Assembly: GCA_934636825.1 (NCBI GenBank)
Contig: CAKUBG010000001.1
Coordinates: 256,080 to 320,079 of the forward strand
DNA: 64,000 nt
Source of the DNA: an uncultured bacterium
Lineage (GTDB): Bacteria; Vulcanimicrobiota; Xenobia; Xenobiales; Xenobiaceae
Direction of reading: 5' to 3'
The notes under the pieces were generated by a model, which saw only the letters and a list, made by a program, of their open reading frames with translations, did not search any database and was not told where the DNA came from. The position numbers and the translations under genes are program-made. Positions 289 to 15,279 of the stretch are shown here, piece by piece. Position 1 is the first letter of the stretch. Every line of letters starts with the position of its first letter.

Positions 289-2682
289 CTATTTGTTAGG
301 CATAATGAAGCCCATAATGCAAGCAGCATTTACATTGTAGGTCTTACGGCGCACAGAGTTGCTGCTGTTGCCTTCGATGGTAGTGACGGTGCCGCTGGCA
401 GCGTCGTAGCTCTCTACGATACCGACGTGGTCGGCGCTGCTGCGGGTGTTGTCCCAGTCGAACATAATCATATCACCAGCTTTAGGAGCGTAACCATTGC
501 CACCTTGCTGCCAAGTGTTCTGTCCTTTAGACCACTCAACCAAAGTGGGAGTGTAGTTTACGTTGGAGCACTTGCTGAAGTCCATGACACCATGCTTAGC
601 TAAGATACCGGTAGCAAAAGCGGCGCACCAAGGCTGCTGCTGACAATCGAGAGCCCAGCTCTGGTTCCAGTCCTTGGTAATGGCATTGATCTGAGAAGCA
701 TTGCCACTTTCGGTCATACCAACCATAGATCCGGCCTCACTGAGGGCTCCGTCTACGCCCTTGCCGCCCTTAGTCTCGGCACCTTTCAAGTGCTCAAGCA
801 TGTAAGCGCCTACCTGGTCGTGGTAAATACTGGTCACACCCTTGTGCCAATTCTGGTCGGTAGCCCAACCGGCTTTATTTACAGCAGAAGTTTGCTCAGC
901 AATGGAAGCATCGGCAGAAGAACCACCTTTAGAGCGCAAGTTGGCGAAAGTCCTAGCGCCAACATTGATTTGATTCTCTACGCCAGAGAACTTGGAGTTT
1001 CTGGTAGCGTTATTAGGATCGGAGTCGTAAGCGCCTACGCCCATCCAACCGTTGATACCAATACCAGTCTTACCCCACTGTGTTTCTTGACCAGCGATGG
1101 AGAGCAAGACCAACGGATCTACGTTGTTTTCTTTACCGGCTTTAACGAACATAGCGCCAGTACCTTCGGGAGCATCGGAGCCCTTGGAAGCCAAGAAGCC
1201 GTCGATAGCTTTAGCGATGTCGGCGTCGGAGCACTTAGAAAGGTCGATATCGCCAGCAGCGGTAGTTCTGGTAGCGGAACCAGTGCTACCAGTTCCCTGA
1301 GTTCCGCCGGTACCACCAGTACCGCCTACGCCACCAGTGCCGCCGGTGCCACCGCCACCATTATTGACAGCTCCGGTACCGCCATTGTTGCCACCACCAT
1401 TGGAGCCGTTGCTACCATTGGCGCCATTAGAGCCATTGGCTGCACCTTGAGCTCCGGCAGCTTCATCGGAACTTCCCTGAGCGCCCTGAGCTTGAGCAGC
1501 CTCTTCAGCGGGAGCGTTTTTAGCATCGATCTCGGCTTGTACCTTGTCGATATCCTTCTGAAGGTTTTGCTTCTGAGTTTGGATATCTTCAAGCTCGCCA
1601 TTGACGCGCTCTAAGTCTTCGTTGACGCCCTGAAGCTTGTTGGTGATCTCTTCAACCTTTTCCTGATCGCCAGCAGCTTTGGCAGCAGCCAACTCTTCTA
1701 CGAGCTCTTCTTGCTGCTTCTCCAGCTCTTCTTTTTCTTTAAGCTTAGCTTCTTCTTGCTTAGTAAGCTCATCCATATCTTTCTGGAGGTCTTCCATCTC
1801 CTCTTCGGGAGTGGGCTCTAACTCTTCGATCTCTTTATTGATCTTGTCGAGCTTGTCATTTACTTCAGAAAGTTCATCATTGATACCATCGAGCTTGTTG
1901 GTGAGCTCTTTAACTTTGGCCTGGTCGCCAGCAGCTTGAGCTTTTTCGAGCTCTTCGATAGTCTCGTCGCGCTGTTTCTCGAGCTCTTCTTGCTTCTTAG
2001 TCTGAGCTTCCTTCTCTTCGTTGAGCTTCTCGAGCTTCTTTTCCTTAACTTCTTCTTTCTTCTTCTCGACTTCTTCTTTTACCTTAGCTTTGTCGGCATC
2101 GGAAACTTCTTCACCGTCTTCGCCTCTGAGGTTGTCGACCATTTCTTCGAGATCATCGGAAAGACCATCCATACCGATCTTGTCAGCCAGTTTAGAAGCA
2201 CCTTCTAATCCATCGGCAACCTTGTCTTTAACATGATCAACAATCTTATCTTTGACGCCATTAACAAAATCGCCAAACTTTTCAAGAGGATTTTTTTCTT
2301 CAGTTTTGCCGCCAAATTTACCGCCTCCACCGCCGAAACCATTTATACTGTTACTGCTGCCGCTAAACTTCTCTCCTTTAACAGAGAAGCTACCGCTCTC
2401 GTCATCTAAAGAAGCAACTTTTACTCCTCTACCAGCTTTAGCGGCTTCGCTATCACTAACGCTAATCTTATCTTGCTCTTGAGCTTTTTGGGCTTCTTGA
2501 GCCTTGCGAGCTTCTTCAGCCTGCTTGGCTTGTTGAGCTTCTTGAGCCTTACGAGCTTCTTCAGCTTTGCGAGCCTCTTCCTGGCGGCGACGAGCTTCTT
2601 CGGCCTCGCGACGGCGGCGAGCCTCTTCGGCTTGCTGTTGTCTGATAGCGGCAGAATTATCGTAGCTGCTATTGATACTCAT
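289..2682 (-). CDS. Giant coiled-coil peptidoglycan hydrolase, paralog 1 (glucosaminidase-like + C-terminal CHAP domain)
   Basis: Strong GGAGG RBS before the internal ATG (MSINSS...), so the upstream 17 codons of the tracked ORF are probably not translated. ARKAEE-type charged repeats, Gly-rich segments, and a repeated 'ELEKAQAAGDQ.KV.ELTNKL.G.N.EL' coiled-coil module. C-terminus carries 'LLSIAGQETQWG' (glucosaminidase/FlgJ-like), then 'WCAAFATGILAKHG...DHVGIV...EGNS' (CHAP Cys/His). No signal peptide. Confidence 0.75.
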   Translation of the reverse strand: MSINSSYDNSAAIRQQQAEEARRRREAEEARRRQEEARKAEEARKAQEAQQAKQAEEARKAQEAQKAQEQDKISVSDSEAAKAGRGVKVASLDDESGSFSVKGEKFSGSSNSINGFGGGGGKFGGKTEEKNPLEKFGDFVNGVKDKIVDHVKDKVADGLEGASKLADKIGMDGLSDDLEEMVDNLRGEDGEEVSDADKAKVKEEVEKKKEEVKEKKLEKLNEEKEAQTKKQEELEKQRDETIEELEKAQAAGDQAKVKELTNKLDGINDELSEVNDKLDKINKEIEELEPTPEEEMEDLQKDMDELTKQEEAKLKEKEELEKQQEELVEELAAAKAAGDQEKVEEITNKLQGVNEDLERVNGELEDIQTQKQNLQKDIDKVQAEIDAKNAPAEEAAQAQGAQGSSDEAAGAQGAANGSNGANGSNGSNGGGNNGGTGAVNNGGGGTGGTGGVGGTGGTGGTQGTGSTGSATRTTAAGDIDLSKCSDADIAKAIDGFLASKGSDAPEGTGAMFVKAGKENNVDPLVLLSIAGQETQWGKTGIGINGWMGVGAYDSDPNNATRNSKFSGVENQINVGARTFANLRSKGGSSADASIAEQTSAVNKAGWATDQNWHKGVTSIYHDQVGAYMLEHLKGAETKGGKGVDGALSEAGSMVGMTESGNASQINAITKDWNQSWALDCQQQPWCAAFATGILAKHGVMDFSKCSNVNYTPTLVEWSKGQNTWQQGGNGYAPKAGDMIMFDWDNTRSSADHVGIVESYDAASGTVTTIEGNSSNSVRRKTYNVNAACIMGFIMPNK

Positions 2683-2749
2683 AGTAAAATCCCTCCTACC
2701 TTTGCGAGCACAAAAAGCGCTCGACCTGTACACAGGTACTGTTGTTTAT

Positions 2750-2809
2750 ATTATCAAGCGCTTGTTTACTTTATCTAGAATTTATCTACTGATTTAACAT
2801 TTATTTAAC
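2750..2809 (-). promoter_or_regulatory. Conserved promoter module of paralog 1 (GTTAAATAAATGTTAA box, TAGATAA x2, TGATAAT)
   Basis: In the - sense: GTTAAATAAATGTTAAA (2794-2809), TAGATAA at 2782-2788 and 2771-2777, TGATAAT at 2750-2756. The same ordered elements occur upstream of paralogs 2-4. Confidence 0.5.
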
Positions 2810-2844
2810 TTTTAATTTTTTTTACTTCATCTTGAAATATTGTA

Positions 2845-2884
2845 CAAAAAAAGCCCCTCGACCAAAATCGAGAGGCTTCTCGTT
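2845..2884 (-). terminator. Rho-independent terminator downstream of paralog 2
   Basis: - sense: GCCTCTCGA-loop-TCGAGGGGC followed by U8, immediately after the stop at 2902. Confidence 0.6.
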
Positions 2885-2901
2885 AGTTAGCTATATATTT
2901 C

Positions 2902-5900
2902 TTACTTGTTGGGTTCAATGTAACCCATAACGCAAGCTTGGTTGCGATCGTAAGTTTTGACTCTTACGGAGTTGCTGCTGTTACCTTCAACTGTAGTAAC
3001 TACACCGGTACCGGCGTCGTAACTGACTACCAAACCGACGTGATCGGCGCCGCTACGAGTGTTGTCCCAGTCAAACATAATCATATCACCGGCCTTGGGA
3101 GCGTAATCGCCACCGCCCTGGCGCCAAGTGCCCTGACCTTTGGCCCAATTGACCAAAGTGGGAGTATAGTTGACGTTGTCGCAAGCGCTGAAGTCCATAA
3201 CGCCGTGCTTAGCCAAAATACCGGTAGCGAAAGCAGCGCACCAAGGTTGAGACTGACAATCGAGAGCCCAACTCTGGTTCCAATCCTTGGTAATGGCATT
3301 GATCTGAGAAGCGTTGCCACTTTCGGTCATACCTTCCATGGAAAGAGCCTCATCGAGAGCACCTTCGATACCCTTACTACCCTTAAGTTCGGCGCCTTTT
3401 AAGTTTTCCAACATGTAAGCACCAACCTGATCGTGATATATCTTGGTAACGCCTTCATGCCACTTCTGGTCGGTAGCCCAACCGGCTTTGTTTACGGCCG
3501 AAGCCTGATCGGCAATAGAAGCATCGGAAGAAGAACCACCTTTTTCACGTAAGTTGTGGAAAGTTCTAGCACCAACATTGATCTGGTTCTCTACACCGGA
3601 AAACTTAGGATTACGGGTTGAGTTGTTGGGATCGGAGTCATAAGCGCCTACGCCCATCCAACCGTTGATACCTACGCTACCGGAAGCGGTACCCCAACGG
3701 GTTTCTTGACCGGCAATGGAAAGCAGAACCAGAGGATCTACATCATTTTCTTTACCGGCTTTAACAAAGAGAGCACCAGTGCCAGCAGGAGCGGGAGAAC
3801 CTTTTTCAGCTAAGAAACCGTCGATAGCCTTAGCAACATCTTCGTCGGAGCACTTGGAAATATCGATATCACCAGCCGCGCTGCTTCTCTTAACAGAAGA
3901 TCCGGAGCTGACGCTACCAGCGCCGCCGGAACCACCAACGCCACTGACGCCGCCGCCTCCGCCACCATAGTTGCCACCGCCGCCGGAACCGGAACCACCG
4001 TTATTGGCAGCAGCTTGCTGAGCGGCCAGCTGTTGACCAAGCTGGTTTAATTGTTTTTGCAAATCTTCATTGCTAATACCGACAGCTTTTTCAAAATCGC
4101 TCAAATTGTCATTGGACTGAGCAGCGCTTTCAGCAGCTTTAGATTCATCAACTTTAGCTTCGTCAGCTTTGGCTTTGTCGGCAGCAGCAATTTCTTCATC
4201 GCTCATCACTTTGCCGTCGGCGCCAATACGTTTGCCTTCTTCATTGACGAGGTTGCCCTTATTGTCAATCAGCTGGCCATCGCCATTTACCAACTTGCCA
4301 TCTTCATTGAGAGTGCTGCCTTCAGGAAGTTTCTTGCCATCTTCACTGTAAAGAGTGCCGTTCTTGTCCACGAAAACGCCGTCAGGAAGCTTCTCAGGAT
4401 CAACTTTAGCGCTGTCGGTAGCACTATCTTTGGTACCTTCAGTACCGGCGGCTTTAGCATCTTCACCCTGACCGGCGGCATTTTTAGCATCGTCGGCAGT
4501 ATCTTTGGCGCTATCGGCGGCAGCCTTATCGGAAGCGTTGGCGGCTTCAACAGTGCTTACGCCGTCTTGAGCTTTTTCGGCCTTGCCGTCAATTTGACCA
4601 GCAGTATTTTCGGCTTTGGACACCTTCTGATCGGCGCTATTAACTTGACCGGCGGCATCTTCGGCCTTGGTATCAGCTTCAGAAGCAGCAGTTTCGGCTT
4701 GTTCAGCTTTGGTAGCGTCATCGGTAGCTTTAGTTTCGGCTTGTTCAGAAGCGTTGGCTGCTTCAGTAGCGGCAGTTTCAGCTTGTTCGGACTTGCCTTC
4801 AGCGGCGCTGAGCTGGCTTTCCAACTCAGAGGCTTTGCTTTCGGCAGCGTCGGCGGCACTGTGAGCGGCGTCAGCTTTGGCCTGAGCGGAATCTAAAGCG
4901 GACTGAGCTGAAGCAATAGCTTCTTCATCGGGCACTTGCTCGGTGCTTCCGTCTTCGTTTTCGACAGTCTTGGTAGCAGACTTGGCAGCTTCCAAAGCGG
5001 ACTGAGCCTGAGCAACTTCAGAATCGGCCTGAGTAGCTTCAGCAGCTTTATTAGTAGCTTCGGTACGAGCTTCGGTAGCTTGAGACTTAAGCTGTTCCAT
5101 TTCAGCTTTGGCTTTGTCGGCCTTGGACTTGGAGTCTTGAGCTTCAGAAGCAGCTTTGGTTGCATCGCTCTGAGAAGTTTGAGCGGCGGAATTGGCTTCG
5201 GTAGCGGCATTGCCGGCCTCGCTAGCGGCTTGCTGCGCAGCTTGAGATTGCTCGTTGGCAGAAGTAGCTTTGGCTTGAGCTTGTTCTACGTTGGAAGCGG
5301 CATTCTGCTGAGCGGACTGAGCGCTATTTACTTTGTCTTGCTGAGCAGCAGCTTTGGCAGCATTTTCTTGCTCAAGCTGGTTGCGAGTAGAATCAATATT
5401 GTCACTTAAATTGGAAATGCGATTTTGCAAAGAGTTCATATCGTCTTGAGAAGAACTCAATTGCTGATTGACTTGATTCAGCTCTTGGCTCAGTTGCTCT
5501 ACTTTTTCCTGGTCGCCATCAGCTTGAGCTTCGGCTAAATCTTCTACTAACTGGGCTTGCTTTTGCTCTAAAGCTTCGCGCTCTTGGGCTTTCTTCTCTT
5601 GCTCTTTCTTGAGCTCTTCCATCTCGGCTTCTAAAGTGCCCAAAGTTTCGGCGGTATTGGCTTCTTTGCCCTCTTGCTCGCCTTCATTGATCACTTTTTC
5701 TAATTCGCTCTGAGCCGCTTCCAAATCGGTATTGGCTTCATCTACGTCGGCGTTGGCTGCAGCGGCAGTTTTAGCTTGTTCGGCTGCTTCAGTTTGAGTT
5801 TTGGCTTGAGTAGCGGCAGTTTCGGCAGCAGTTGCATCTTTCGCTTTGGCATCTTCGTTGGCTACAGCAGCTTTAGCGTCAGCATTTTCGCCTTCTTCTG

Positions 5901-6189
5901 AAGACTTGACAGCTTTATCGCCAGCTTCTTCAGTTTTTTCACCAGCTTTGGTGGCTTCAGCGGCAGCAGCTTCAGCACTTTCCGCACCTTCAGCGGCAGC
6001 AGCTTCGTCGTCTAAAGAAGCGACATTGAGAGAGCCGAAAGCGTTAATGGCTTCAGAACCAGACAAAGAGATAGAGTCATCGGCCGCAAAACCGAACGCA
6101 TTATTGCTAGACGCAGCAGCAGAAGTGCTGGGCATATTGGTGGAAATACCGGATATTCCTAAAAAGCTTGAAATCTTATCTAACGACAT
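2902..6189 (-). CDS. Giant coiled-coil peptidoglycan hydrolase, paralog 2 (1095 aa; glucosaminidase-like + CHAP)
   Basis: Conserved N-terminal module 'MSLDKISSFLGISGISTNMPS...SLDDE', an Ala/Glu/Gln-rich coiled-coil of about 700 aa, then a GGSGSGGGGNYGGGGGG linker. C-terminus carries 'FVKAGKENDVDPLVLLSIAGQETRWG' and the CHAP motif 'WCAAFATGILAKHG...DHVGLVVSYD...EGNSSNSV'. RBS GGAGAG before the ATG. Confidence 0.8.
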   Translation of the reverse strand: MSLDKISSFLGISGISTNMPSTSAAASSNNAFGFAADDSISLSGSEAINAFGSLNVASLDDEAAAAEGAESAEAAAAEATKAGEKTEEAGDKAVKSSEEGENADAKAAVANEDAKAKDATAAETAATQAKTQTEAAEQAKTAAAANADVDEANTDLEAAQSELEKVINEGEQEGKEANTAETLGTLEAEMEELKKEQEKKAQEREALEQKQAQLVEDLAEAQADGDQEKVEQLSQELNQVNQQLSSSQDDMNSLQNRISNLSDNIDSTRNQLEQENAAKAAAQQDKVNSAQSAQQNAASNVEQAQAKATSANEQSQAAQQAASEAGNAATEANSAAQTSQSDATKAASEAQDSKSKADKAKAEMEQLKSQATEARTEATNKAAEATQADSEVAQAQSALEAAKSATKTVENEDGSTEQVPDEEAIASAQSALDSAQAKADAAHSAADAAESKASELESQLSAAEGKSEQAETAATEAANASEQAETKATDDATKAEQAETAASEADTKAEDAAGQVNSADQKVSKAENTAGQIDGKAEKAQDGVSTVEAANASDKAAADSAKDTADDAKNAAGQGEDAKAAGTEGTKDSATDSAKVDPEKLPDGVFVDKNGTLYSEDGKKLPEGSTLNEDGKLVNGDGQLIDNKGNLVNEEGKRIGADGKVMSDEEIAAADKAKADEAKVDESKAAESAAQSNDNLSDFEKAVGISNEDLQKQLNQLGQQLAAQQAAANNGGSGSGGGGNYGGGGGGVSGVGGSGGAGSVSSGSSVKRSSAAGDIDISKCSDEDVAKAIDGFLAEKGSPAPAGTGALFVKAGKENDVDPLVLLSIAGQETRWGTASGSVGINGWMGVGAYDSDPNNSTRNPKFSGVENQINVGARTFHNLREKGGSSSDASIADQASAVNKAGWATDQKWHEGVTKIYHDQVGAYMLENLKGAELKGSKGIEGALDEALSMEGMTESGNASQINAITKDWNQSWALDCQSQPWCAAFATGILAKHGVMDFSACDNVNYTPTLVNWAKGQGTWRQGGGDYAPKAGDMIMFDWDNTRSGADHVGLVVSYDAGTGVVTTVEGNSSNSVRVKTYDRNQACVMGYIEPNK

Positions 6190-6207
6190 TCAGTAATCTC
6201 TCCTAAT
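4893..6207. repeat. Direct repeat copy A (100% identical to 8416-9730); 5' half of paralog 2 plus 18 nt of leader
   Basis: Three six-frame ORFs have identical translations in both copies at a constant offset of 3523 (4893-5210 and 8416-8733; 4936-5409 and 8459-8932; 5846-6196 and 9369-9719). Identity decays to about 90% between 4450 and 4890. Sequence diverges 18 nt upstream of the ATG. Confidence 0.85.
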
Positions 6208-6265
6208 TCCTCATAAACGAAAAGAGGCGGCACACTGCTGCGCCTTTTCCACTCGTATTCTCTTC

Positions 6266-6329
6266 ATTATCAATTATGACCAAAAATTTATCTACAATTT
6301 AAAAACTGTTTTAACATTTATTTAACATT
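6266..6329 (-). promoter_or_regulatory. Conserved promoter module of paralog 2
   Basis: - sense: GTTAAATAAATGTTAAA (6311-6329), TAGATAA (6288-6294), 15 nt, TGATAAT (6266-6272). The leader has the hairpin AGGCG-N11-CGCCU followed by a U-run. Confidence 0.5.
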
Positions 6330-6375
6330 AAAAATGATTTAACTATTTTTTACTATTTTGTCATGCTGAATTGAG

Positions 6376-6430
6376 CAAAAAAAACTCTCCCCCTTTGGCA
6401 AGTCTTTTACTCGACCAACGGGGAGAGCTC
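6376..6430 (-). terminator. Probable terminator downstream of paralog 3
   Basis: CTCTCCCC (6386-6393) pairs with GGGGAGAG (6420-6427). A8 on the + strand gives a U-run on the - strand. The 26-nt loop is long for a terminator. Confidence 0.45.
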
Positions 6431-6502
6431 TCGCGCTGTATAGGTAGTCCGACTCAAAAATCTAATTTTCGTGAATCAGACTCACCACATCTATGTATAT
6501 TG

Positions 6503-9500
6503 TTAGTCACCGATAGAAGTGTAACCTAATACGCAAGCGTCATTGCGATTGTAGGTTTTTACTCTTACAGAATTGCTGCTATTGCCCTCAACCGTGGTAA
6601 TAGTACCGCTGTCAGAGTCGTATTTTACTACCAGACCAACGTGATTGGGGCTGGTACGGGAGCCATCCCAATCAAAGAAGATCATATCGCCCTTCTTAGG
6701 TGAATAATCACTGCTGGCATGATTCCAAGTGCCTTCACTCTGTGACCAATCCACCAAATAGTTGGTAGAATTGACGTTTTGGCAGCCAGAGAAATCTTCC
6801 ACACCATTTTTAGCCAAGATGCCGCTAGCAAAAGCAGCACACCAAGGCCATTCTTGACAATCGAGAGCCCAACTCTGGTTCCAATCCTTGGTAATGGCAT
6901 TGATCTGAGCAGTATTGCCACTTGCGGTCATGCCTTCCATAGAGAGAGCCTCGTCAATAGCGGCATCAATGCCTTTGTTGCCACTGGAGGAAGAAGTGCC
7001 GGAAGCAGCAGAGGCAGCCTTTATTTCCTCCATCTTAGCTTGTACATAAGGGGCAACTTGATTTTGGTAAATGCTAGTTACGCCATTATGCCAATTTTGG
7101 TCACTGGCCCATCCGGCTTTGTTGACAGCAGAAGTCTGAGCGGCAATAGAGTCGGAAGAAGAGGATCCACCCTTTTCACGCAAATTGTGGAAGGTTCTGG
7201 CACCGACGTTGATCTGTTTTTCCACACCAGAGAACTTAGGATTGCGAGTTGAGTTGTTGGGGTCGGAGTCGTAAGCACCTACGCCCATCCAGCCATCGAT
7301 ACCAACGCTACCAGCAGCGGTACCCCAACGGGTTTCCTGACCAGCGATAGATAATAAAATAAGCGGATCGACATCATTTTCTTTACCAGCCTTGACAAAC
7401 AGAGCGCCAGTACCTTCAGGAGCGGGAGAGCCTTTTTCAGCTAAGAAGCAATCAATTGCTTTAGCCATAGCTTGCTCATTTTCGTCGGTAAGCTCTACTT
7501 TGCTAATCGAGCCAGCTTTGCTAGCTGAAGAGGTGGAACCAGTGCTGCCAGTACCGCCTACGCTACCGGAGCCACCTACACCGCCTCCGCCGCCGTAGTT
7601 GCCGCCACCGCCGGAACCAGAGCCGGAACCACCATTATTGCCAGCAGCTTGCTGAGCAGCACCTTGGTTGGCAATCTGTTGGCCGAGTTGTTCAATTTGC
7701 TTTTGCAAATCTTCATTGCTGATACCGGTAGCTTTTTCAAAGCCGCTCTTCTCTTCAGCAGCTTGACCAGCGCCTTCTTTGGCTTCATCAGTCTTAGCTT
7801 CATCGGCTTTGGCTTTGTCGGCTTTAGCAATATCTTCATCGCTCATCACTTTGCCATTTTCGTCGACACGCTTACCTTCAGCATTGACCTGATTGCCCTC
7901 AGCGTCAATCATTTTGCCATTCTTGTCTATCATAACGCCATCGGCCAGCTTGTCGGTATCGACTTTAGCTTCGCCTTTAGCGTCTTCACCTTGACCGGCG
8001 GCATTTTTAGCATCGTCGGCGGTATCTTTGGCACTATCGGCGGCAGCCTTATCAGAAGCGTTGGCGGCTTCAACAGTGCTCACGCCGTCTTGAGCTTTTT
8101 CAGCTTTGTCGTCAATTTGACCGGCAGTATTTTCGGCTTTGGACACCTTCTGATCGGCGCTATTAACTTGACCAGCAGCATCTTCAGCTTTGGTATCGGC
8201 TTCGGAAGCGGCTGTTTCGGCCTGCTCGGCTTTGGTAGCGTCATCGGTAGCTTTAGTTTCGGCTTGTTCAGAAGCGTTGGCTGCTTCAGTAGCGGCAGTT
8301 TCGGCTTGTTCGGATTTACCTTCGGCGGCGCTGAGCTGGCTTTCCAACTCAGAGGCTTTGCTTTCGGCAGCGTCGGCAGCGCTGTGAGCGGCGTCAGCTT
8401 TGGCCTGGGCGGAATCTAAAGCGGACTGAGCTGAAGCAATAGCTTCTTCATCGGGCACTTGCTCGGTGCTTCCGTCTTCGTTTTCGACAGTCTTGGTAGC
8501 AGACTTGGCAGCTTCCAAAGCGGACTGAGCCTGAGCAACTTCAGAATCGGCCTGAGTAGCTTCAGCAGCTTTATTAGTAGCTTCGGTACGAGCTTCGGTA
8601 GCTTGAGACTTAAGCTGTTCCATTTCAGCTTTGGCTTTGTCGGCCTTGGACTTGGAGTCTTGAGCTTCAGAAGCAGCTTTGGTTGCATCGCTCTGAGAAG
8701 TTTGAGCGGCGGAATTGGCTTCGGTAGCGGCATTGCCGGCCTCGCTAGCGGCTTGCTGCGCAGCTTGAGATTGCTCGTTGGCAGAAGTAGCTTTGGCTTG
8801 AGCTTGTTCTACGTTGGAAGCGGCATTCTGCTGAGCGGACTGAGCGCTATTTACTTTGTCTTGCTGAGCAGCAGCTTTGGCAGCATTTTCTTGCTCAAGC
8901 TGGTTGCGAGTAGAATCAATATTGTCACTTAAATTGGAAATGCGATTTTGCAAAGAGTTCATATCGTCTTGAGAAGAACTCAATTGCTGATTGACTTGAT
9001 TCAGCTCTTGGCTCAGTTGCTCTACTTTTTCCTGGTCGCCATCAGCTTGAGCTTCGGCTAAATCTTCTACTAACTGGGCTTGCTTTTGCTCTAAAGCTTC
9101 GCGCTCTTGGGCTTTCTTCTCTTGCTCTTTCTTGAGCTCTTCCATCTCGGCTTCTAAAGTGCCCAAAGTTTCGGCGGTATTGGCTTCTTTGCCCTCTTGC
9201 TCGCCTTCATTGATCACTTTTTCTAATTCGCTCTGAGCCGCTTCCAAATCGGTATTGGCTTCATCTACGTCGGCGTTGGCTGCAGCGGCAGTTTTAGCTT
9301 GTTCGGCTGCTTCAGTTTGAGTTTTGGCTTGAGTAGCGGCAGTTTCGGCAGCAGTTGCATCTTTCGCTTTGGCATCTTCGTTGGCTACAGCAGCTTTAGC
9401 GTCAGCATTTTCGCCTTCTTCTGAAGACTTGACAGCTTTATCGCCAGCTTCTTCAGTTTTTTCACCAGCTTTGGTGGCTTCAGCGGCAGCAGCTTCAGCA

Positions 9501-9712
9501 CTTTCCGCACCTTCAGCGGCAGCAGCTTCGTCGTCTAAAGAAGCGACATTGAGAGAGCCGAAAGCGTTAATGGCTTCAGAACCAGACAAAGAGATAGAGT
9601 CATCGGCCGCAAAACCGAACGCATTATTGCTAGACGCAGCAGCAGAAGTGCTGGGCATATTGGTGGAAATACCGGATATTCCTAAAAAGCTTGAAATCTT
9701 ATCTAACGACAT
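6503..9712 (-). CDS. Giant coiled-coil peptidoglycan hydrolase, paralog 3 (1069 aa; glucosaminidase-like + CHAP)
   Basis: The N-terminal ~430 aa are identical to paralog 2. The C-terminal hydrolase region is about 70% identical: 'LILLSIAGQETRWG', CHAP 'WCAAFASGILAKNG...NHVGLVVKYD'. Confidence 0.8.
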   Translation of the reverse strand: MSLDKISSFLGISGISTNMPSTSAAASSNNAFGFAADDSISLSGSEAINAFGSLNVASLDDEAAAAEGAESAEAAAAEATKAGEKTEEAGDKAVKSSEEGENADAKAAVANEDAKAKDATAAETAATQAKTQTEAAEQAKTAAAANADVDEANTDLEAAQSELEKVINEGEQEGKEANTAETLGTLEAEMEELKKEQEKKAQEREALEQKQAQLVEDLAEAQADGDQEKVEQLSQELNQVNQQLSSSQDDMNSLQNRISNLSDNIDSTRNQLEQENAAKAAAQQDKVNSAQSAQQNAASNVEQAQAKATSANEQSQAAQQAASEAGNAATEANSAAQTSQSDATKAASEAQDSKSKADKAKAEMEQLKSQATEARTEATNKAAEATQADSEVAQAQSALEAAKSATKTVENEDGSTEQVPDEEAIASAQSALDSAQAKADAAHSAADAAESKASELESQLSAAEGKSEQAETAATEAANASEQAETKATDDATKAEQAETAASEADTKAEDAAGQVNSADQKVSKAENTAGQIDDKAEKAQDGVSTVEAANASDKAAADSAKDTADDAKNAAGQGEDAKGEAKVDTDKLADGVMIDKNGKMIDAEGNQVNAEGKRVDENGKVMSDEDIAKADKAKADEAKTDEAKEGAGQAAEEKSGFEKATGISNEDLQKQIEQLGQQIANQGAAQQAAGNNGGSGSGSGGGGNYGGGGGVGGSGSVGGTGSTGSTSSASKAGSISKVELTDENEQAMAKAIDCFLAEKGSPAPEGTGALFVKAGKENDVDPLILLSIAGQETRWGTAAGSVGIDGWMGVGAYDSDPNNSTRNPKFSGVEKQINVGARTFHNLREKGGSSSSDSIAAQTSAVNKAGWASDQNWHNGVTSIYQNQVAPYVQAKMEEIKAASAASGTSSSSGNKGIDAAIDEALSMEGMTASGNTAQINAITKDWNQSWALDCQEWPWCAAFASGILAKNGVEDFSGCQNVNSTNYLVDWSQSEGTWNHASSDYSPKKGDMIFFDWDGSRTSPNHVGLVVKYDSDSGTITTVEGNSSNSVRVKTYNRNDACVLGYTSIGD

Positions 9713-9730
9713 TCAGTAATCTCTCCTAAC
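8416..9730. repeat. Direct repeat copy B (100% identical to 4893-6207)
   Basis: See copy A. Confidence 0.85.
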
Positions 9731-9797
9731 CTTTCAAAGCAAAAAAAGATGACTGACGCACTGCGCTAAGCGACCTTTTTCCGCCTTTATTATTTCT

Positions 9798-9859
9798 TTT
9801 ATCAACCATTATTTCCGCTTAATCTAGTGTAAAAGTCACGTTAACATTTATTTAACATT
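9798..9859 (-). promoter_or_regulatory. Conserved promoter module of paralog 3
   Basis: - sense: GTTAAATAAATGTTAAC (9841-9859), TAGATTA (9820-9826), 15 nt, TGATAAA (9798-9804). Leader hairpin followed by U7. Confidence 0.5.
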
Positions 9860-9865
9860 GTATAT

Positions 9866-9905
9866 AAAAAAAATAAGCAGCCTTCCAAGCATGGAGGCTG
9901 CTTAT
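9866..9905 (-). terminator. Rho-independent terminator downstream of paralog 4
   Basis: AAGCAGCC(t)TCCA pairs with TGGAGGCTGCTT. A9 on the + strand gives a U-run on the - strand after the stop at 9942. Confidence 0.6.
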
Positions 9906-9941
9906 AAAGTGTTTATTAAATATCAGAGCTGCAGTTGTACT

Positions 9942-12794
9942 CTATTTGTTAGGAGAAATGTAACCCATTACACAAGCTTGGTTACGATCATAAGTTTTTA
10001 CTCTGACAGCTCCGGGAGAGCCGCTGTTACCTTCAACCGTAGTGACAACTCCAGTTGAGTTATCGTAACTAACTACAATACCTACATGATCAGCACCAGA
10101 TCGAGTGTTGTCCCAGTCGAACATAATCATATCACCGGACTGAGGTTCATAATCGCCTCCAGCTTGGCTCCAAGTGCCTTCGCCCTTAGACCACTCCACC
10201 AAAGTGGGAGTATAGTTCACATTGGAGCAATTGCTAAAGTCCATGACGCCATTTTTAGCCAAGATACCGGTAGCGAAGGCGGCGCACCAAGGTTGAGACT
10301 GGCAGTCTAAAGCCCAACTCTGGTTACAATCTTTGGTAATAGCGTTAATTTCGGCAGCATTAGAGTTCTCGGTCATGCCTTCCATAGACAAAGCTTCATT
10401 AAGAGCAGCATCTATGCCCTCACCGCCCTTGGTAGAAGCACCTTCCAAATGCTCGAGCATATAAGAGCTGACCTGGTTTTGATAGATGCTAGTAACGCCG
10501 TTATGCCAGTTTTGATCAGTAGCCCAACCGGCTTCATTAACGGCAGCGGTTTGATCAGCTACTGAAGCATCGGCAGAGGATCCACCCTTTTCACGTAAGT
10601 TGGCAAAAGTTTTGGCTCCAACTTGTATCTGATTTTTTACACCAGCAAACGTAGAATTGGTAGTAGCATTAGTGGGGTTGGAATCGTAGGCGCCTACGCC
10701 CATCCAACCGTTGATGCCGATACCGGTTTTGCCCCATTGCGTCTCTTGACCGGCAATAGAAAGCAAGATCAAAGGATCGACATTATATTCTTTACCAGCT
10801 TCAACGAAGAGTTTGCCCGTGCCTTCGGGGGCTTCGGAGCCTTGCTCACTCAAGAAGCCATCAATAGCGCTAGCTATATCTTCATCTGAACAATTAGACA
10901 GATCTAAATCTCCGGCGGCACTGCTTCTCTTCACTGACGATCCTGAGCTTACACTACCGGAACTTCCTGAACTACCTACGCTCCCGCTGCTACCAACGCC
11001 GCCGTAACTGCCGCTACCTCCGGAGCTTCCCGTGCTACCGCTGCCAGAAGACTGATTAGCCGCTTGAGCTGCGGCCAGTTGCTCACCCAAAGCTTCAATT
11101 TGCTTTTGTAAGTCTTCGTTAGTTATGCCGACAGCTTCTTCAAAGCCATTGGTCTCTTCAGCTTCATTGGCTTTACCGTCAACTTCAGAAGCCGTCTCTT
11201 CAGTTTGTTCAGCATTTTCCGTAGCGCTGTCAGCTTGGCCAGCAGCTTCTTCGGCTTTACTATCGGCTTCAGAAGCAGCAGTTTCAGCATTTTCAGCTTG
11301 AGCAGCGTCTTCGTCGGCTTGATTTTGAGCTTGTTCGGAATTGTCAGCATCTTGAGTAGCTTCAGCTTCAGCATTTTCGGAAGTACCCTCGGCAGCACTG
11401 ACCATATCTTCTAATTGAGAAGCCTTATCTTCAGCTTCGTCGGCAGCTGTGTGGGCAGCTTCAGCTTTAGCTTGAGCAGATTCCAAAGCGGATTGAGCCG
11501 AAGCTATAGCTTCATCATCTTGCACTTCGGTAGTATTGCCATCTTCGTCTTCAACAGTCTTGGTGGCAGATTGAGCCTCTTCTAAAGCAGATTGAGCTTC
11601 AGATACTTCAGAATCGGCCTGATCGGCTTCTTCGGCTTTACTATTAGCTTCGGTACGAGCTTGCTCAGCGGCTGCTTTCAGTTCCTCTAAAGTGCTCTTG
11701 GCTTCTTCGGCTTTAGACTGAGATTGCTGAGCTTGATCAGCAGCTTGGGTAGCTTCACTCTGAGAAGCTTGAGCAGCCGAACTGGCTTCAGTAGCAGTTT
11801 CACCAGCTTGGCTGGCTTGTTGTTGGGCGCTCTGAGAATTGGCATTGGCAGTTTCAGCTTTAGCCTGAGCCTGCTCTAAATTGGAAGAAGCATTTTGCTG
11901 AGCACTCTGAGCAGCCTCAACTTTATCTTGCTGATTCTGAGCTTTGGTAGCATTTTCTTGTTCAAGCTGGTTCTTAGTAGAATCTATAGTGTCGCTCAAA
12001 CGAGAAATATCATTTTGCATTGAGCTTAAAGAATCTTGAGTGTTGCTTAAATCTTGATTTACTTGATTCAGTTCTTGGCTGAGCTGCTCAACTTTTTCCT
12101 GATCTCCATCAGCCTGAGCTTCAGCCAGCTCTTCTACCAACTGAGCCTGTTTTTGCTCCAAAGCCTCACGCTCTTGAATTTTCTCTTCTTGCTCTTTTTT
12201 GAGCTCTTCCATTTCGGCTTCTAAACTGCTTAAAGTTTCAGCCGTAGTCTCTTCTTTGCCCTCACGATCGCCTTCAGCAATCACATTCTCCAACTCACGC
12301 TGGGCAGCGTCTAAATCAGTATCGGCTTCGTCAACCTCAGAATTGGCTTCAGTAGCCGCAGCAGCCTGTTCGGAAGCCTCAGTTTGAGCCGTAGTTTGAG
12401 AAGCTGCCGCTTCCGCAGCTTCAGCATTTTTACTATCAGCCTCTTCTACAGCTTCTTCAGAAGCTATTTGATTATTTTCATTCTCTTCGAGAGCATTGGT
12501 CTCCTCATTGGCAGCAGTTTCAGACGCTTCTTCACTGTCTTGAGTTTGTTCGGTGGTTTGAGCTTCTTCTGAAGCTTGAGCTTCACCATCAGTCTCTTCA
12601 GAAGCTTTATCTTCATCTAAAGAAGCCACACTGAGATTACCAAAAGAGCTCAATACTTCCGAACCGGACAGAGATATAGAATCTTCGGTAGTTAAACTAA
12701 AGCCCGAAGCAGAAGAACTCGTTCCGGAAAGAGAAGGCATATTGCCGGAAATACCAGAGATACCCAAAAAGCTGGAAATTTGATCTAAAGCCAT
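9942..12794 (-). CDS. Giant coiled-coil peptidoglycan hydrolase, paralog 4 (950 aa; glucosaminidase-like + CHAP)
   Basis: N-terminus 'MALDQISSFLGISGISGNMPS' is a diverged form of the paralog 2/3 module. Acidic Glu/Gln-rich coiled-coil. 'FVEAGKEYNVDPLILLSIAGQETQWG', CHAP 'WCAAFATGILAKNG...DHVGIVVSYD'. Confidence 0.8.
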   Translation of the reverse strand: MALDQISSFLGISGISGNMPSLSGTSSSASGFSLTTEDSISLSGSEVLSSFGNLSVASLDEDKASEETDGEAQASEEAQTTEQTQDSEEASETAANEETNALEENENNQIASEEAVEEADSKNAEAAEAAASQTTAQTEASEQAAAATEANSEVDEADTDLDAAQRELENVIAEGDREGKEETTAETLSSLEAEMEELKKEQEEKIQEREALEQKQAQLVEELAEAQADGDQEKVEQLSQELNQVNQDLSNTQDSLSSMQNDISRLSDTIDSTKNQLEQENATKAQNQQDKVEAAQSAQQNASSNLEQAQAKAETANANSQSAQQQASQAGETATEASSAAQASQSEATQAADQAQQSQSKAEEAKSTLEELKAAAEQARTEANSKAEEADQADSEVSEAQSALEEAQSATKTVEDEDGNTTEVQDDEAIASAQSALESAQAKAEAAHTAADEAEDKASQLEDMVSAAEGTSENAEAEATQDADNSEQAQNQADEDAAQAENAETAASEADSKAEEAAGQADSATENAEQTEETASEVDGKANEAEETNGFEEAVGITNEDLQKQIEALGEQLAAAQAANQSSGSGSTGSSGGSGSYGGVGSSGSVGSSGSSGSVSSGSSVKRSSAAGDLDLSNCSDEDIASAIDGFLSEQGSEAPEGTGKLFVEAGKEYNVDPLILLSIAGQETQWGKTGIGINGWMGVGAYDSNPTNATTNSTFAGVKNQIQVGAKTFANLREKGGSSADASVADQTAAVNEAGWATDQNWHNGVTSIYQNQVSSYMLEHLEGASTKGGEGIDAALNEALSMEGMTENSNAAEINAITKDCNQSWALDCQSQPWCAAFATGILAKNGVMDFSNCSNVNYTPTLVEWSKGEGTWSQAGGDYEPQSGDMIMFDWDNTRSGADHVGIVVSYDNSTGVVTTVEGNSGSPGAVRVKTYDRNQACVMGYISPNK

Positions 12795-12847
12795 AAGTTT
12801 CTCCTCAATTTTTAGGTCATACTTTCTTAATATACGACCTATACTTA

Positions 12848-12882
12848 CTGATAATTATCAGAGAAAACATCGGCATTATCTA
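12848..12882 (-). promoter_or_regulatory. Conserved promoter module of paralog 4, including the perfect palindrome CTGATAATTATCAG
   Basis: - sense: TAGATAA (12876-12882), 15 nt, TGATAAT (12854-12860). TGATAAT lies inside the 14-bp perfect palindrome at 12848-12861. The GTTAAATAAATGTTAA box is absent here. Confidence 0.45.
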
Positions 12883-13004
12883 GTAAAAAAAAGCTCGTAA
12901 AATTCGGCTTTTATTATAATTAAATATAAGAAAAATAAATAAGCAAAAAATGATAATAAATTAAAGGAAAGCTAAGGGAAGAGGAATTAGGACTAACAGC
13001 TTAT

Positions 13005-13712
13005 TTGCGTAAAAAAACGCTAATGGCAGGATTGACTTGGCCAGGAGCAAACTTGGCGGCCATGTTAGAAATTTGGTTGGTTCGCCACGGCAGTACCGAT
13101 TGGAATAAAGTCAGACGCTGGCAAGGTCATAGCGACGTTCCCCTTAACGAATTGGGAAAGAGTCAAGCCAGAGCCTTGGCGAACAATTTAAAAGATGTCC
13201 CCTTTACTCAGGTTTGGAGCTCAGATTTGCACCGCTGCATAGAGACAGCCCGCTTGGCCCTTCCTAATTTAGATCCTCAGGAGATACGTTTAGATCGGCG
13301 TTTGCGCGAGATTCCTATGGGTATCGTAGAAGGACGCACTTGGGATGAACTTACCAAAGAAGAGCAAGATAAAGTAACCGCTTGGTGGAAAGATCCTTAC
13401 AAAACTTACTTTCCGGGAGCCACCGAAACTTTGCAAGACGTAGCCGACCGAGCTGAAGCTTGGAGACGCGATTTACCCAAAGACGGACGCGTGATAGCTT
13501 TCAGCCACGGCGGAATTATCCGAACCATACTTTGGGGAATCGTCGGCCCCCCCAAGGGACAGTACCAATGGTCTATGGAGTTGGGAAATACCGGAGTAGT
13601 TCGCTTGCGCTATCACGAAGATTTCCCTTGCTTGCTGTCATTTAACGATATGTCGCATATCAAAGACGCTTGGGCTTTACCACCGGCTCAAAACGTACCC
13701 GGTTCTCCCTAA
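13005..13712 (+). CDS. Histidine phosphatase family protein (phosphoglycerate-mutase-like)
   Basis: 'LVRHGSTDWN' is the RHG catalytic motif. The true start may be the internal Met at 'MLEIWLVRHG'. Confidence 0.65.
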   Translation: MRKKTLMAGLTWPGANLAAMLEIWLVRHGSTDWNKVRRWQGHSDVPLNELGKSQARALANNLKDVPFTQVWSSDLHRCIETARLALPNLDPQEIRLDRRLREIPMGIVEGRTWDELTKEEQDKVTAWWKDPYKTYFPGATETLQDVADRAEAWRRDLPKDGRVIAFSHGGIIRTILWGIVGPPKGQYQWSMELGNTGVVRLRYHEDFPCLLSFNDMSHIKDAWALPPAQNVPGSP

Positions 13713-13749: not shown

Positions 13750-14484
13750 ATGAACAAATTCTTTACCAAAAGCCTCATTGTTTCCTTAGCTCTAATTGGT
13801 TGTGCTTGCTGGCCCGCTTCAGCTTTAGCCGAAGAACCAACCCCAACGAAACCTAACACCAGCATTGAGCAAAATCTTTTGGCTGCCAAACCGGAGACCA
13901 CTTCCAAATACAGACACCTCAAGCCATTTTATGACAACGCTCCTGCTCTTACAGAAGTTGTAAAAGTACGCTTCAAAACCAGTGCAGGCAATATTGAGAT
14001 GGAAATTTATCCTCAAGCTGCTCCTAATGCCGCCAAGCGTTTTGTAGAGTTGGTCAAAGCCGGTTATTACGACAATACTCCCATCTTCCGTGTAGTAAAG
14101 AATCCTCGTCCCTTTGTAGCCCAATTCGGCATCAACTGGCGAGATGGCCAGCGTCAATGGAACGAAAAAAGATTCAATGATGATCCAAGTCTCTTCCACT
14201 TGGAAGCCGGAACTTTAGCTTTTGCCAAAGCCGGCCCCAACACCAACTCCACTCAAGTATTTATAAATTACGCCAATAACGATTTCTTGCGTGGACAAAC
14301 TTTTTCGACTTTCGGCATTATTACCAAAGGTTTGGAAATTGCCAATAATTTTAAGCAAGTAGGCGATCCCAATATGGGCTTAAATCAGGGCATGCTTTCC
14401 ACCAATGGAGACGCTTATTTAAAGCAACTTCCTGCTAATCAGCAACCTACCATGATTATCAAAGCCGAAGTTATTAAAGACTAG
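13750..14484 (+). CDS. Cyclophilin-type peptidyl-prolyl cis-trans isomerase, secreted
   Basis: N-terminal signal peptide (..SALAEEP). 'FKTSAGNIEMEIYPQAAPNAAKRFVELVKAGYYD...FRVVKN...FVAQFG' is a cyclophilin fold signature. Confidence 0.75.
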   Translation: MNKFFTKSLIVSLALIGCACWPASALAEEPTPTKPNTSIEQNLLAAKPETTSKYRHLKPFYDNAPALTEVVKVRFKTSAGNIEMEIYPQAAPNAAKRFVELVKAGYYDNTPIFRVVKNPRPFVAQFGINWRDGQRQWNEKRFNDDPSLFHLEAGTLAFAKAGPNTNSTQVFINYANNDFLRGQTFSTFGIITKGLEIANNFKQVGDPNMGLNQGMLSTNGDAYLKQLPANQQPTMIIKAEVIKD

Positions 14485-14538: not shown

Positions 14539-15279
14539 ATGAATAAATACGCCATATCTGCGCTAGCTACCGTTGTATTGCTGGCCAGCGTGCAATTTGG
14601 TTGCACTAAGCAAGAGACGACTTCAGAAAATCAGTCAGATGTTCAAACTCAGAGCAATACGACTGAGTCTCAACAACAAGAAAAGGAGAGCCCTATGTCA
14701 GCTCAATATCGTTCCCTCACCCCCTTCGGTTCCAATGCTCCGGCTATTACCGAATATACCTTAGTTCGCTTCGAAACTACCGACGGCGACGTGGATATGG
14801 AAATTTATCCTCAAGCTGCTCCCAATGCCGCTAAGCGTTTTGTAGAATTGGTTGAACTTGGATATTATAACGACACCCCTATTTTCCGCGTAGTCAAGAA
14901 CCCCCAGCCTTTCGTAGCCCAATTCGGTATCAACTGGCGCAAAGGTATGATCGATTGGAGAGACAAGAATTTCAACGATGATCCCAGTCTTTTCCACTTA
15001 GATCGCGGCACCTTGGCCTTTGCCAAAGCCGGTCCCAATACCAACTCCACTCAAGTTTTCATCAACTATGGCAACAACGATTTCCTCCAGTCCCAGAATT
15101 TCACCACTTTTGGTAAAGTTGTCAAAGGCATTGAAGTAGCTGATCAGTTTAAGTCCGTAGGCAGCCCCGACATGGGACTCGATCAGGGTATGCTTTGGTA
15201 CAATGGCGAAGCTTATTTGAAAAGCTTACCTGCCAACCAGCAGCCTACTATGATCAAAAAAGCTTACGTAGTTAAATAG
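14539..15279 (+). CDS. Cyclophilin-type peptidyl-prolyl isomerase, tandem paralog
   Basis: About 65% identical to the upstream gene across the cyclophilin domain. Signal peptide present. Confidence 0.75.
   Translation: MNKYAISALATVVLLASVQFGCTKQETTSENQSDVQTQSNTTESQQQEKESPMSAQYRSLTPFGSNAPAITEYTLVRFETTDGDVDMEIYPQAAPNAAKRFVELVELGYYNDTPIFRVVKNPQPFVAQFGINWRKGMIDWRDKNFNDDPSLFHLDRGTLAFAKAGPNTNSTQVFINYGNNDFLQSQNFTTFGKVVKGIEVADQFKSVGSPDMGLDQGMLWYNGEAYLKSLPANQQPTMIKKAYVVK

Follow-up and report, generated by a model that had tools for sequence, protein, structure and literature searches.

Results

Four tandem wall hydrolase genes

The window, by which we mean the whole 64-kb stretch of DNA analyzed, carries four tandem minus-strand paralogs, here called A to D, and the middle pair, B and C, bears a long direct repeat. 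The four proteins share one build, in which an N-terminus that is disordered and has no signal peptide leads into a long helical region rich in Ala, Glu, and Gln, a Gly linker, and a GH73 glucosaminidase and CHAP end. The features discussed below are as follows, all on the minus strand.

289-2733, minus strand: paralog D, an 814-aa ORF (likely start at the ATG at 2682, giving 797 aa); N-terminus different, GH73 and CHAP end shared
2902-6189, minus strand: paralog C, 1,095 aa; disordered N-terminus, long helical region, DGK-type repeat insert, Gly linker, GH73-like domain, CHAP domain
4451-4885, minus strand: older flank in C, probably converted; codons 435-579, with 28 differences from B, 27 of them synonymous (dS 0.34)
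4886-6206, minus strand: exact repeat, copy 1; paralog C codons 1-434 and two bases of 435, preceded by 17 nt of leader (RBS AGGAGA)
6207-6502, minus strand: B-C spacer; C-specific promoter-like/leader region and terminator-like hairpins, not converted
6294-6266, minus strand: predicted C promoter, TAGATA-17-GATAAT, from a promoter scan
6311-6329, minus strand: C-upstream motif AATGTTAAATAAATGTTAA, in the B-C spacer
6503-9712, minus strand: paralog B, 1,069 aa; architecture as in C; hydrolase part compared with C, dS 1.33 and dN/dS 0.13
7974-8408, minus strand: older flank in B, probably converted; partner of 4451-4885
8409-9729, minus strand: exact repeat, copy 2; the matching 1,321 bp in paralog B, again at the 5' end
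9730-9941, minus strand: A-B spacer; B-specific promoter-like/leader region, not converted
9841-9859, minus strand: B-upstream motif, counterpart of AATGTTAAATAAATGTTAA, in the A-B spacer
9942-12794, minus strand: paralog A, 950 aa; 5' module ~70% identical to that of B and C and not homogenized with it

The setting of the array is chromosomal, and a Pfam scan of the larger window ORFs places it among housekeeping genes (ATP synthase, MurA, MreB, TamB, and cyclophilins). A phage origin was considered and rejected, given these neighbors and a tblastn search of phage records in which the GH73 segment alone was matched, at 35% identity, by lysins of Bacillus, Listeria, and Staphylococcus phages. 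The closest genomes are gut MAGs related to UBP9/UBA4705 (Eremiobacterota).

The C-terminal hydrolase domains

The PF01832 (GH73) profile scores A (32.6 bits) and D (33 bits) above its cut-off of 30.2 bits and does not list B or C at E <= 0.01; homologs were sought with the C-terminal 336 aa of C as the query, and close homologs such as P0001 (95% identity to C) carry a precomputed PF01832 match. Look-ups for exact copies of the B and C proteins gave no record. The putative catalytic Glu of the motif AGQET(Q/R)WG is invariant in 4/4 paralogs and aligns with ALESNWG of LytB. A fold search with the predicted hydrolase structure retrieved AtlE, LytB, Acp, and 2zyc, a FlgJ-type hydrolase. The conserved Glu and the fold identify the domain as GH73, with a predicted activity. 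For CHAP (PF05257, cut-off 26 bits), A, B, and C score 36.6-44 bits; D is unlisted there but matches TIGR02594. None of the four proteins departs from the motifs PWCAAF, HVG, and EGN, and in the fold search the model resembles the CHAP domains of LysK, LysGH15, and phi812. Both the profile and the Cys/His catalytic residues assign this domain to CHAP. The AlphaFold model (pLDDT 84) matches 4fdy and 5t1q over ~350 columns at E about 1e-4 and, taken domain by domain, AtlE, LytB, and CHAPK. Since none of the four paralogs has lost a catalytic motif and the B/C hydrolase parts differ with a dN/dS of only 0.13, B and C both appear from their sequences to be functional genes.

The N-terminal module

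Residues 1-86 are predicted to be disordered, and the model that follows consists of helices 87-404 and 422-577 flanking a beta-hairpin (406-420); its pLDDT reaches 97, from an underlying alignment of only three sequences. A fold search with this helical model returned 0 matches at E <= 0.001, the remainder being nonspecific coiled-coil; Cg1735 (8auc) is among these weak matches at a nonsignificant E of 0.05. A Kyte-Doolittle scan for a hydrophobic segment that could act as a signal peptide or membrane anchor found none (maximum 19-residue mean 0.73-0.98). The N-terminal 66 residues were also considered as a shared secretion or anchor domain, which we reject: an exhaustive HMMER search of them against 1.84 billion representatives gave one match, a 79-aa fragment, and the domain is therefore specific to this lineage.

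An exact repeat with a graded flank

When the window is compared with itself at a constant shift of 3,523 bp, the longest exact run is 1,321 bp, with 4886-6206 identical to 8409-9729. The repeat is direct and is composed of 17 nt of leader and CDS nt 1-1304 of B and C; identity begins at -17, and the first mismatch lies at CDS nt 1305. The preliminary description had claimed base-for-base identity over 1.3 kb at this spacing, which we confirm without a single mismatch in the tract, while its 18 nt of leader and its limits of 4893-9730 are corrected to the values given here. It had also put the next ~450 bp at ~90% identity. Identity does drop there, and the revised figure is 93.6% over 435 bp (4451-4885 and 7974-8408), with 28 mismatches and 0 indels. 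All but one of these 28 differences are synonymous, and the two proteins differ at 1 position in their first 579 residues. Beyond this flank the B/C register is lost to indels, and over the last 1 kb (GH73 and CHAP) nucleotide identity is 72.6%, in line with the ~70% described before. Synonymous divergence between B and C is correspondingly graded, with dS rising from 0 through 0.34 and 0.80 to 1.33; in the exact tract, its upper bound is 0.010 over 288 synonymous sites.

We shuffled the 569 differing columns of the B/C alignment 2,000 times in a GENECONV-type permutation test. The longest identical run in the shuffled window alignments averaged 36 and never exceeded 71, compared with 1,304 observed (ln P about -244). 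Including the two comparison genomes introduced below, the observed runs are 1,304 (window), 2,092, and 1,790 nt, against permuted maxima of 71-117. A chance origin of the exact run is excluded.

Homogenization recurs in related genomes

Both B and C are resolved in three genomes only, the window and the assemblies L001 and L003. Within each of these genomes, the first 1,300 nt of B and C are 99.8-100% identical (0-3 differences), compared with 77-83% between genomes. In L001 and L003, B and C are almost identical over their first 1.8-2.1 kb, a region that is 65-89% identical between genomes. Sliding-window B/C identity is 1.00 over nt 1-1200 in the window, nt 1-2000 in L001, and nt 201-1800 in L003, where nt 1-200 are at 0.98. 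The relationship is reversed from nt 2200 on, with identities of 0.80-0.92 for same-position genes and 0.64-0.86 for B versus C. The tract measures 1.3/1.75 kb in the window, 2.1-2.3 kb in L001 (with 10 mismatches and 5 gap openings), and 1.8 kb in L003 (with 6 mismatches), and these different lengths indicate that homogenization took place separately in each lineage. L003 has a second tract at the 3' end (581 bp, 97%).

Neighbor-joining trees (200 bootstraps) were built separately for the 5' 1,300 nt and the 3' 1 kb. In the 5' tree, B and C pair by genome with 200/200 support in all three genomes, while the 3' tree groups the sequences by paralog (A 200/200, B 198/200, C 200/200, D 200/200). 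The upstream regions also follow position. The window B-upstream region is 75% and 62% identical to those of L001 and L003, compared with 57% to the window C-upstream region; C-upstream regions are 71-88% identical across genomes, the B-C spacer of the window reaching 88% and 72% with its counterparts in the other species, and B-upstream versus C-upstream identity is 52-57%. In all three genomes, B/C identity begins 17-20 nt before the ATG.

These data show the hallmarks of concerted evolution: the paralogs are closer within a genome than same-position genes are between genomes, position-specific relationships are kept outside the tract, as seen in the discordant trees, and the identical run is longer than divergence predicts.

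Discussion

Probable recurrent gene conversion between B and C

We consider it highly probable (roughly 85%) that the exact tract is the product of recurrent, lineage-independent gene conversion between B and C, resulting in mosaic concerted evolution. The proposal in the preliminary description, that recent or ongoing conversion homogenizes the N-terminal module while the enzymatic ends diverge, is supported by the within- and between-genome identities, and the comparison with related genomes that it called for reveals the same B/C homogenization in L001 and L003. The event would be a nonreciprocal homologous recombination, repeated over time, between the 5' halves of two adjacent genes in the same orientation. 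The position-specific promoters and GH73/CHAP ends show that B and C were already distinct before the sampled species split, yet in each lineage the first 1.3-2.3 kb of one would repeatedly have been overwritten by the other. In the window, the latest event probably ran from -17 to CDS nt 1304, with no change since (dS < 0.01), and an earlier one would have reached to about nt 1738, with a dS of about 0.34 accumulated since. We infer a RecA-type process acting between sister chromosomes or inside one chromosome. Conversion of this kind may sustain itself, as identity favors further exchange, and would halt once homology gives out, which on the 5' side happens in the divergent leader and on the 3' side in the indel-rich repeat/linker segment. 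Longer tracts would be removed by purifying selection on both hydrolase ends and both promoters.

Alternative explanations

The identity of the modules might itself be actively selected, if B and C need a common N-terminal coiled-coil chassis, for example, for co-assembly or for one export or activation partner. In its favor, dN/dS in the older flank is 0.009, compared with 0.03-0.08 for the same region in same-position genes of different species; by a Poisson estimate (p about 0.03-0.12), the single replacement observed compares with about 4-5 expected, a synonymous excess that is only borderline. The near-identity of the two proteins over 579 residues and the 5' limit common to three lineages point the same way, but a diverged leader that is impassable to conversion would predict such a limit just as well. 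Paralog A is not homogenized although its module is of the same type, and no partner protein was identified. We regard active selection as unlikely.

A broader version of this idea, which we think somewhat less likely still, describes the array as "one chassis, several warheads". Here, frequent conversion under selection would keep the N-terminal coiled-coil module of B and C, serving delivery or regulation, interchangeable while differently regulated promoters and diverging GH73/CHAP ends specialize, and crossing-over between the repeats would allow the 3.5-kb unit to be lost and regained. Lacking a signal peptide, the proteins would on this reading need an exit route that is as yet unrecognized. 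If it is correct, gut populations should mix three-gene and four-gene variants, and the assemblies L008 and L010 might be such variants.

A single recent event in the window lineage, either a segmental duplication or one replacement of a 5' half with no ongoing process, could account for the exact tract on the window data alone. This explanation is very unlikely, as L001 and L003 are homogenized in the same region with species-specific sequence and different 3' limits, and the window itself holds two nested age classes (dS 0 and dS 0.34). Together, the L001 and L003 tracts and the nested ages in the window call for no fewer than four events: the window lineage accounts for two, and L001 and L003 for one or more apiece.

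The least probable explanation is an assembly artifact, in which the 5' modules are merely similar, or there is a single gene, and one consensus was used twice or a segment was duplicated: the same layout occurs in three independent assemblies of three species with differing tract sequences and ends, each copy is joined to its own promoter and its own 3' end, both conserved by position in other species, and the real differences retained in the window flank (28) and in the L001 and L003 tracts make wholesale collapse unlikely. The comparison genomes are all short-read metagenome assemblies. In favor of an artifact, these assemblies clearly have difficulty here: contigs end or start inside the module in L004, L016, L013, L009, and L007, the scaffolds L002 and L006 have N gaps, and L008 and L010 have contiguous B/C fusions. 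De Bruijn-graph assemblers can merge near-identical repeats, and the 100.0% might be a slightly inflated 99+%, but repeats less than about 99% identical would not merge.

Assembly also bears on the earlier suggestion of deletion or amplification of the 3.5-kb unit through the repeat. The 1.3-kb perfect direct repeat would be a by-product of conversion, and a crossover inside it would delete 3.5 kb, leaving one gene with the promoter and 5' module of B and the 3' end of C; four other assemblies show either a gap or a single B/C fusion of this predicted composition. The suggestion is only partly supported; the fusions reflect either repeat-mediated deletion or assembly collapse, which are inseparable without reads.

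Implications

The locus is an unusually clean natural example of partial, or mosaic, concerted evolution in bacteria, in which three or more species have each homogenized the 5' module on their own and B and C stay distinct in promoter and catalytic domains. In practice, assemblies of this gut lineage from short reads break or collapse at the locus, its copy number is untrustworthy without long reads, and trees or orthology calls made from B and C depend on the segment chosen. Lastly, it points to an uncharacterized, lineage-restricted family of very large, putatively coiled-coil GH73 and CHAP wall hydrolases without a signal peptide in gut Eremiobacterota of the UBP9 class.

Comparison with known systems

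The catalytic fold pair is shared with Firmicutes autolysins and virion hydrolases that combine GH73 with CHAP (5t1q and 4fdy of S. aureus, LytB 7pj3/4q2w, the LysK CHAP domain), but sequence identity to these enzymes is only 14-20%, and the window proteins are extended N-terminally by 600-750 residues and have neither recognized wall-binding repeats nor a signal peptide. Their predicted layout, with a long helical and putatively coiled-coil N-terminal part ahead of a C-terminal cysteine-peptidase-type wall hydrolase, resembles that of the FtsEX-controlled proteins PcsB, CwlO, RipC/Cg1735, and EnvC. In contrast to these, the window proteins lack a signal peptide or membrane segment, their helical part is far longer, and they have an additional GH73 domain; the Pfam scan of the larger ORFs gave 0 matches to the FtsE/FtsX families within the 64-kb window.

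No paper on gene conversion among tandem peptidoglycan hydrolases came up in a literature search, and the closest parallels come from other gene families. Cassette-type antigenic variation (pilE/pilS, vlsE, msp2) draws on silent promoterless donors to diversify one expressed gene and does not describe this locus, as B and C are full-length with promoter-like sites, RBS, and terminators, and exchange makes them alike rather than diverse. In the Helicobacter pylori outer-membrane paralogs babA/babB and sabA/sabB, partial gene conversion between dispersed loci switches adhesin expression or specificity. These too are mosaic paralogs with an identical end and divergent functional segments, and their recombination yields chimeras, whereas B and C retain their own promoters and catalytic ends and the result is homogenization.

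Concerted evolution of bacterial paralogs by gene conversion, as in tufA/tufB and the rRNA operons, has been surveyed (PMC6053082), and rates of conversion between E. coli rRNA operons are available (PMC8022953). As in those systems, B and C are more alike within a genome than same-position genes are between species, in several lineages, with sharp-ended tracts and a presumed RecA-type recombination. They differ in being homogenized in part only, the 5' module being affected and the promoter and catalytic 3' end spared, in lying as adjacent direct repeats 3.5 kb apart, in encoding lineage-restricted wall hydrolases rather than core complex subunits, and in the short time span demonstrated (species dS about 0.6-1.2). 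The mechanism of gene conversion is already well known, and B and C are a clean but ordinary case of it.

Paralog Array and an Exact Direct Repeat

Four large ORFs, designated A to D, occupy the minus strand within the first 13 kb of the window.

9942-12794, minus strand: paralog A, 950 aa ORF, first in transcription order
6503-9712, minus strand: paralog B, 1,069 aa ORF, second
2902-6189, minus strand: paralog C, 1,095 aa ORF, third
289-2733, minus strand: paralog D, 814 aa ORF, last; likely true start at 2682

A position-by-position comparison at an offset of 3,523 reveals that 4886-6206 and 8409-9729 form a single exact run of 1,321 bp. The run covers nt 1-1304 of the CDS together with the 17 leader nt before it, among which lies the AGGAGA ribosome-binding site. 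The preliminary description had reported an identical tract between "paralogs 2 and 3", which are C and B, and its numbers are borne out to within a few bases. The 435 bp that follow align without indels at 93.6% identity, with 28 mismatches; beyond this flank the alignment requires indels, and the last 1 kb of B and C is 72.6% identical. When the differing columns are permuted, the longest identical run never exceeds 71 nt, versus the 1,304 nt observed.

Other repeats are present in the helical regions: D contains a 137-nt direct duplication (1616-1752 and 1874-2010, 72% identity), and C, B, and A contain 42-nt (14-residue) periodic units at about 4655-4782, 8178-8305, and 11245-11372. Separately, D, C, and B each have a 19-nt motif, AATGTTAAATAAATGTTAA, on the minus strand (2794-2812, 6311-6329, and 9841-9859), immediately 5′ of their promoter-like TAGATA-N17-GATAAT. 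Within the motif, half-sites of the TGTTAAAT type form a direct repeat. These three copies are the only ones in the 64 kb, where chance would give 0, and the motif is kept upstream of B and C in the related loci L001 and L003; a regulator common to these genes may bind it.

Homogenization in Related Genomes

A genome scan yielded related loci that share this gene order. L001 has A-B-C-D; in L003, B-C-D are accompanied by an A remnant; L002 carries A, a single B/C gene with an N gap, and D; and L004, at 91.7% identity to the window, stops 254 nt into B. In self-comparisons, the matching 5′ stretch of B and C extends for 2,290 bp in L001 (98.7% identity) and 1,841 bp in L003 (99.5%). In a six-sequence alignment, the within-genome B/C identity is 1.00 to nt 1200 in the window, to nt 2000 in L001, and over nt 201-1800 in L003 (0.98 over nt 1-200), and the same homogenized segment is 0.65-0.89 identical between genomes. 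From nt 2200 onward, genes at the same position are 0.80-0.92 identical versus 0.64-0.86 for B against C.

Neighbor-joining trees (200 bootstraps) give the same picture. The tree of the 5′ 1,300 nt pairs B with C by genome (200/200 in all three genomes), and that of the 3′ 1 kb resolves clades A (200/200), B (198/200), C (200/200), and D (200/200), with L003-C intermediate and grouping with the B clade because of a second near-identical tract. That tract, found in L003 only (9293-9871 and 12836-13414, 581 bp, 97%), spans the last ∼370 nt of B and C plus downstream sequence. Upstream promoter/leader regions group by position across genomes (B-upstream 62-75%, C-upstream 71-88%), B-upstream and C-upstream are only 52-57% identical within or between genomes, and B/C identity starts 17-20 nt 5′ of the ATG in all three genomes. 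It follows that B and C were already separate genes before the sampled species split and that their 5′ coding module was homogenized independently in each lineage. The identities and trees support the earlier proposal of recent or ongoing gene conversion that homogenizes the N-terminal module while the enzymatic ends diverge.

Timing, Selection, and Mechanism

Divergence between B and C in the window (all dS and dN/dS values, here and in the text, are Nei-Gojobori estimates)
Exact tract: dS 0 (upper 95% bound 0.010, 288 synonymous sites); dN/dS undefined
Flank, codons 435-579: dS 0.34; dN/dS 0.009
Repeat/linker segment: dS 0.80; dN/dS 0.33
Hydrolase part: dS 1.33; dN/dS 0.13

Scaled to the values between the window and L001 (dS 0.57-0.95, 5′ part of same-position genes) and between the window and L004 (dS 0.22-0.53, paralog A), this gradient implies at least two nested events in the window lineage, one very recent and the older of about the age of the split from the L004 species. 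In the older flank (4451-4885 and 7974-8408), 27 of the 28 differences fall at third positions and are synonymous; almost all of these are transitions. The flank dN/dS of 0.009 is below the 0.03-0.08 found for the same region between species; ∼4-5 replacements are expected and 1 is seen (Poisson p about 0.03-0.12, computed from the Nei-Gojobori values). This 27:1 synonymous excess is slightly above expectation and hints at possible selection for identical proteins.

Homogenization is nonrandom and lineage-specific: on the 5′ side it always stops at the leader, and on the 3′ side the stopping point varies within the repeat/linker region. B and C both remain intact genes, and each retains a promoter-like site and terminator-like hairpins of its own. 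Judging by how recombination generally works in bacteria, the likely process would be gene conversion of the RecA type between the direct repeats. Recombination efficiency drops steeply as divergence grows, so conversion could sustain itself, with its limits frozen where the leader (∼55% identity) and the indel-rich segment begin; longer tracts would be purged by selection on the promoters and catalytic ends.

Apparent Fusion Genes and Other Mosaics

In four related assemblies, a single B/C gene combines a promoter of B type and the shared 5′ module with a 3′ end of C type.

L008, 4775-8065
L010, 12403-15783
L002, 12403-15803, N gap 14313-14384
L006, about 2117-5583, N gap 4311-4410

L008 (∼92% identical to the window) and L010 (from the species of L002) are contiguous contigs that read A, fusion gene, D, with B-type sequence upstream of the fused gene, and this layout is the exact remnant expected from a crossover between the two repeats. 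The N gaps of L002 and L006 fall at CDS nt ∼1,900-2,200, and five contigs (L004, L016, L013, L009, and L007) start or stop within the 5′ module. Taken together, the fusions, gaps, and contig breaks show that the clade in general carries the repeat. The deletion or amplification between repeats proposed in the preliminary description is partly supported: L008 and L010 have the layout predicted for a deletion, but assembly collapse gives the same picture, and the single B/C genes are either real deletions or collapsed assemblies.

Further mosaics involve other members. In L003 (5775-6287), what remains of A is an in-frame fusion of NLEQAQAKAET (from ∼residue 305 of A) with the CHAP domain. Only 1 of 137 CHAP residues differs from window A at ∼81% nucleotide identity, so the remnant might still yield a CHAP-only protein. 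In an apparent mosaic in L014 (638-2487), a GH73 region of B/C type runs into a D-type 3′ end, and another in L012 (274-3367) has a D-like 3′ end and then a C-type upstream region and 5′ module. From these two, recombination among family members looks to extend beyond B and C; with the A remnant, they are further signs of a fluid array.

Predicted Proteins

At the C-terminus, all four paralogs have a GH73-type glucosaminidase and, after it, a CHAP domain. The Pfam cutoff for PF01832 is exceeded by A and D and that for PF05257 by A, B, and C, and TIGR02594 matches all four. The CHAP Cys/His motifs (PWCAAF, HVG, EGN) and the GH73 glutamate (AGQET-WG) are invariant; the glutamate lines up with its counterpart in pneumococcal LytB. 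The C-terminal 336 residues, modeled with AlphaFold (pLDDT 84), match 4fdy and 5t1q, both two-domain proteins of S. aureus, and the single domains of the model match AtlE, LytB, FlgJ-type GH73, and LysK-type CHAP structures.

The N-terminal 600-750 residues are rich in Ala/Glu/Ser/Gln. Residues 1-580 are modeled as 86 disordered residues and then very long helices (87-404 and 422-577) flanking a short β-hairpin, and this helical part matches generic coiled-coil proteins only. With dN/dS of 0.03-0.13 between species, the helical module evolves under purifying selection in general and is thus functional rather than junk. The conserved 66-residue N-terminus has 1 relative among 1.84 billion representative proteins; the GH73 core is common to shorter proteins of Eremiobacterota/Vulcanimicrobiota MAGs.

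No signal peptide or anchor-type hydrophobic segment was found in any of the four predicted wall hydrolases, whose first ∼86 residues are all predicted to be disordered, and signal-peptide-like N-termini are absent too from the related Eremiobacterota GH73 proteins retrieved. The architecture resembles that of the FtsEX-controlled coiled-coil hydrolases PcsB, CwlO, and RipC; the proteins are not assigned to that group, as a signal peptide is missing and no FtsEX link was found among the larger ORFs of the window.

Genomic Neighborhood and Host

The surroundings are ordinary chromosome, with a histidine phosphatase, two cyclophilins, a BspA-type LRR protein, TamB, MreB, MurA, an ATP synthase operon, MlaDEF, and DnaJ/GrpE. 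The cyclophilin-type peptidyl-prolyl isomerases are tandem plus-strand paralogs (13750-14484, 244 aa; 14539-15279, 246 aa) of ∼73-75% DNA identity, found also in L001-L004. On the minus strand, a 1,509-aa BspA-type leucine-rich-repeat protein (16567-21096) and a 2,334-aa TamB/DUF748 protein (21214-28218) adjoin MreB and MurA, an arrangement that fits a diderm envelope of the host. The nearest genomes are gut MAGs, "UBP9 UBA4705" among them; UBP9 is an anaerobic class within the diderm phylum Eremiobacterota (PMC6664022) and has been detected in human stool (PMC10881109).

Relation to Known Concerted Evolution

That paralogs evolve in concert through gene conversion is well established for prokaryotes (PMC6053082), rRNA operons being one case (PMC8022953), and B and C belong to this known class. 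They are notable for a clean three-way mosaic, in which the promoter is kept, the 5′ module is homogenized, and the catalytic end is kept, as well as for their host, an uncultured gut lineage, and for their uncharacterized protein family.
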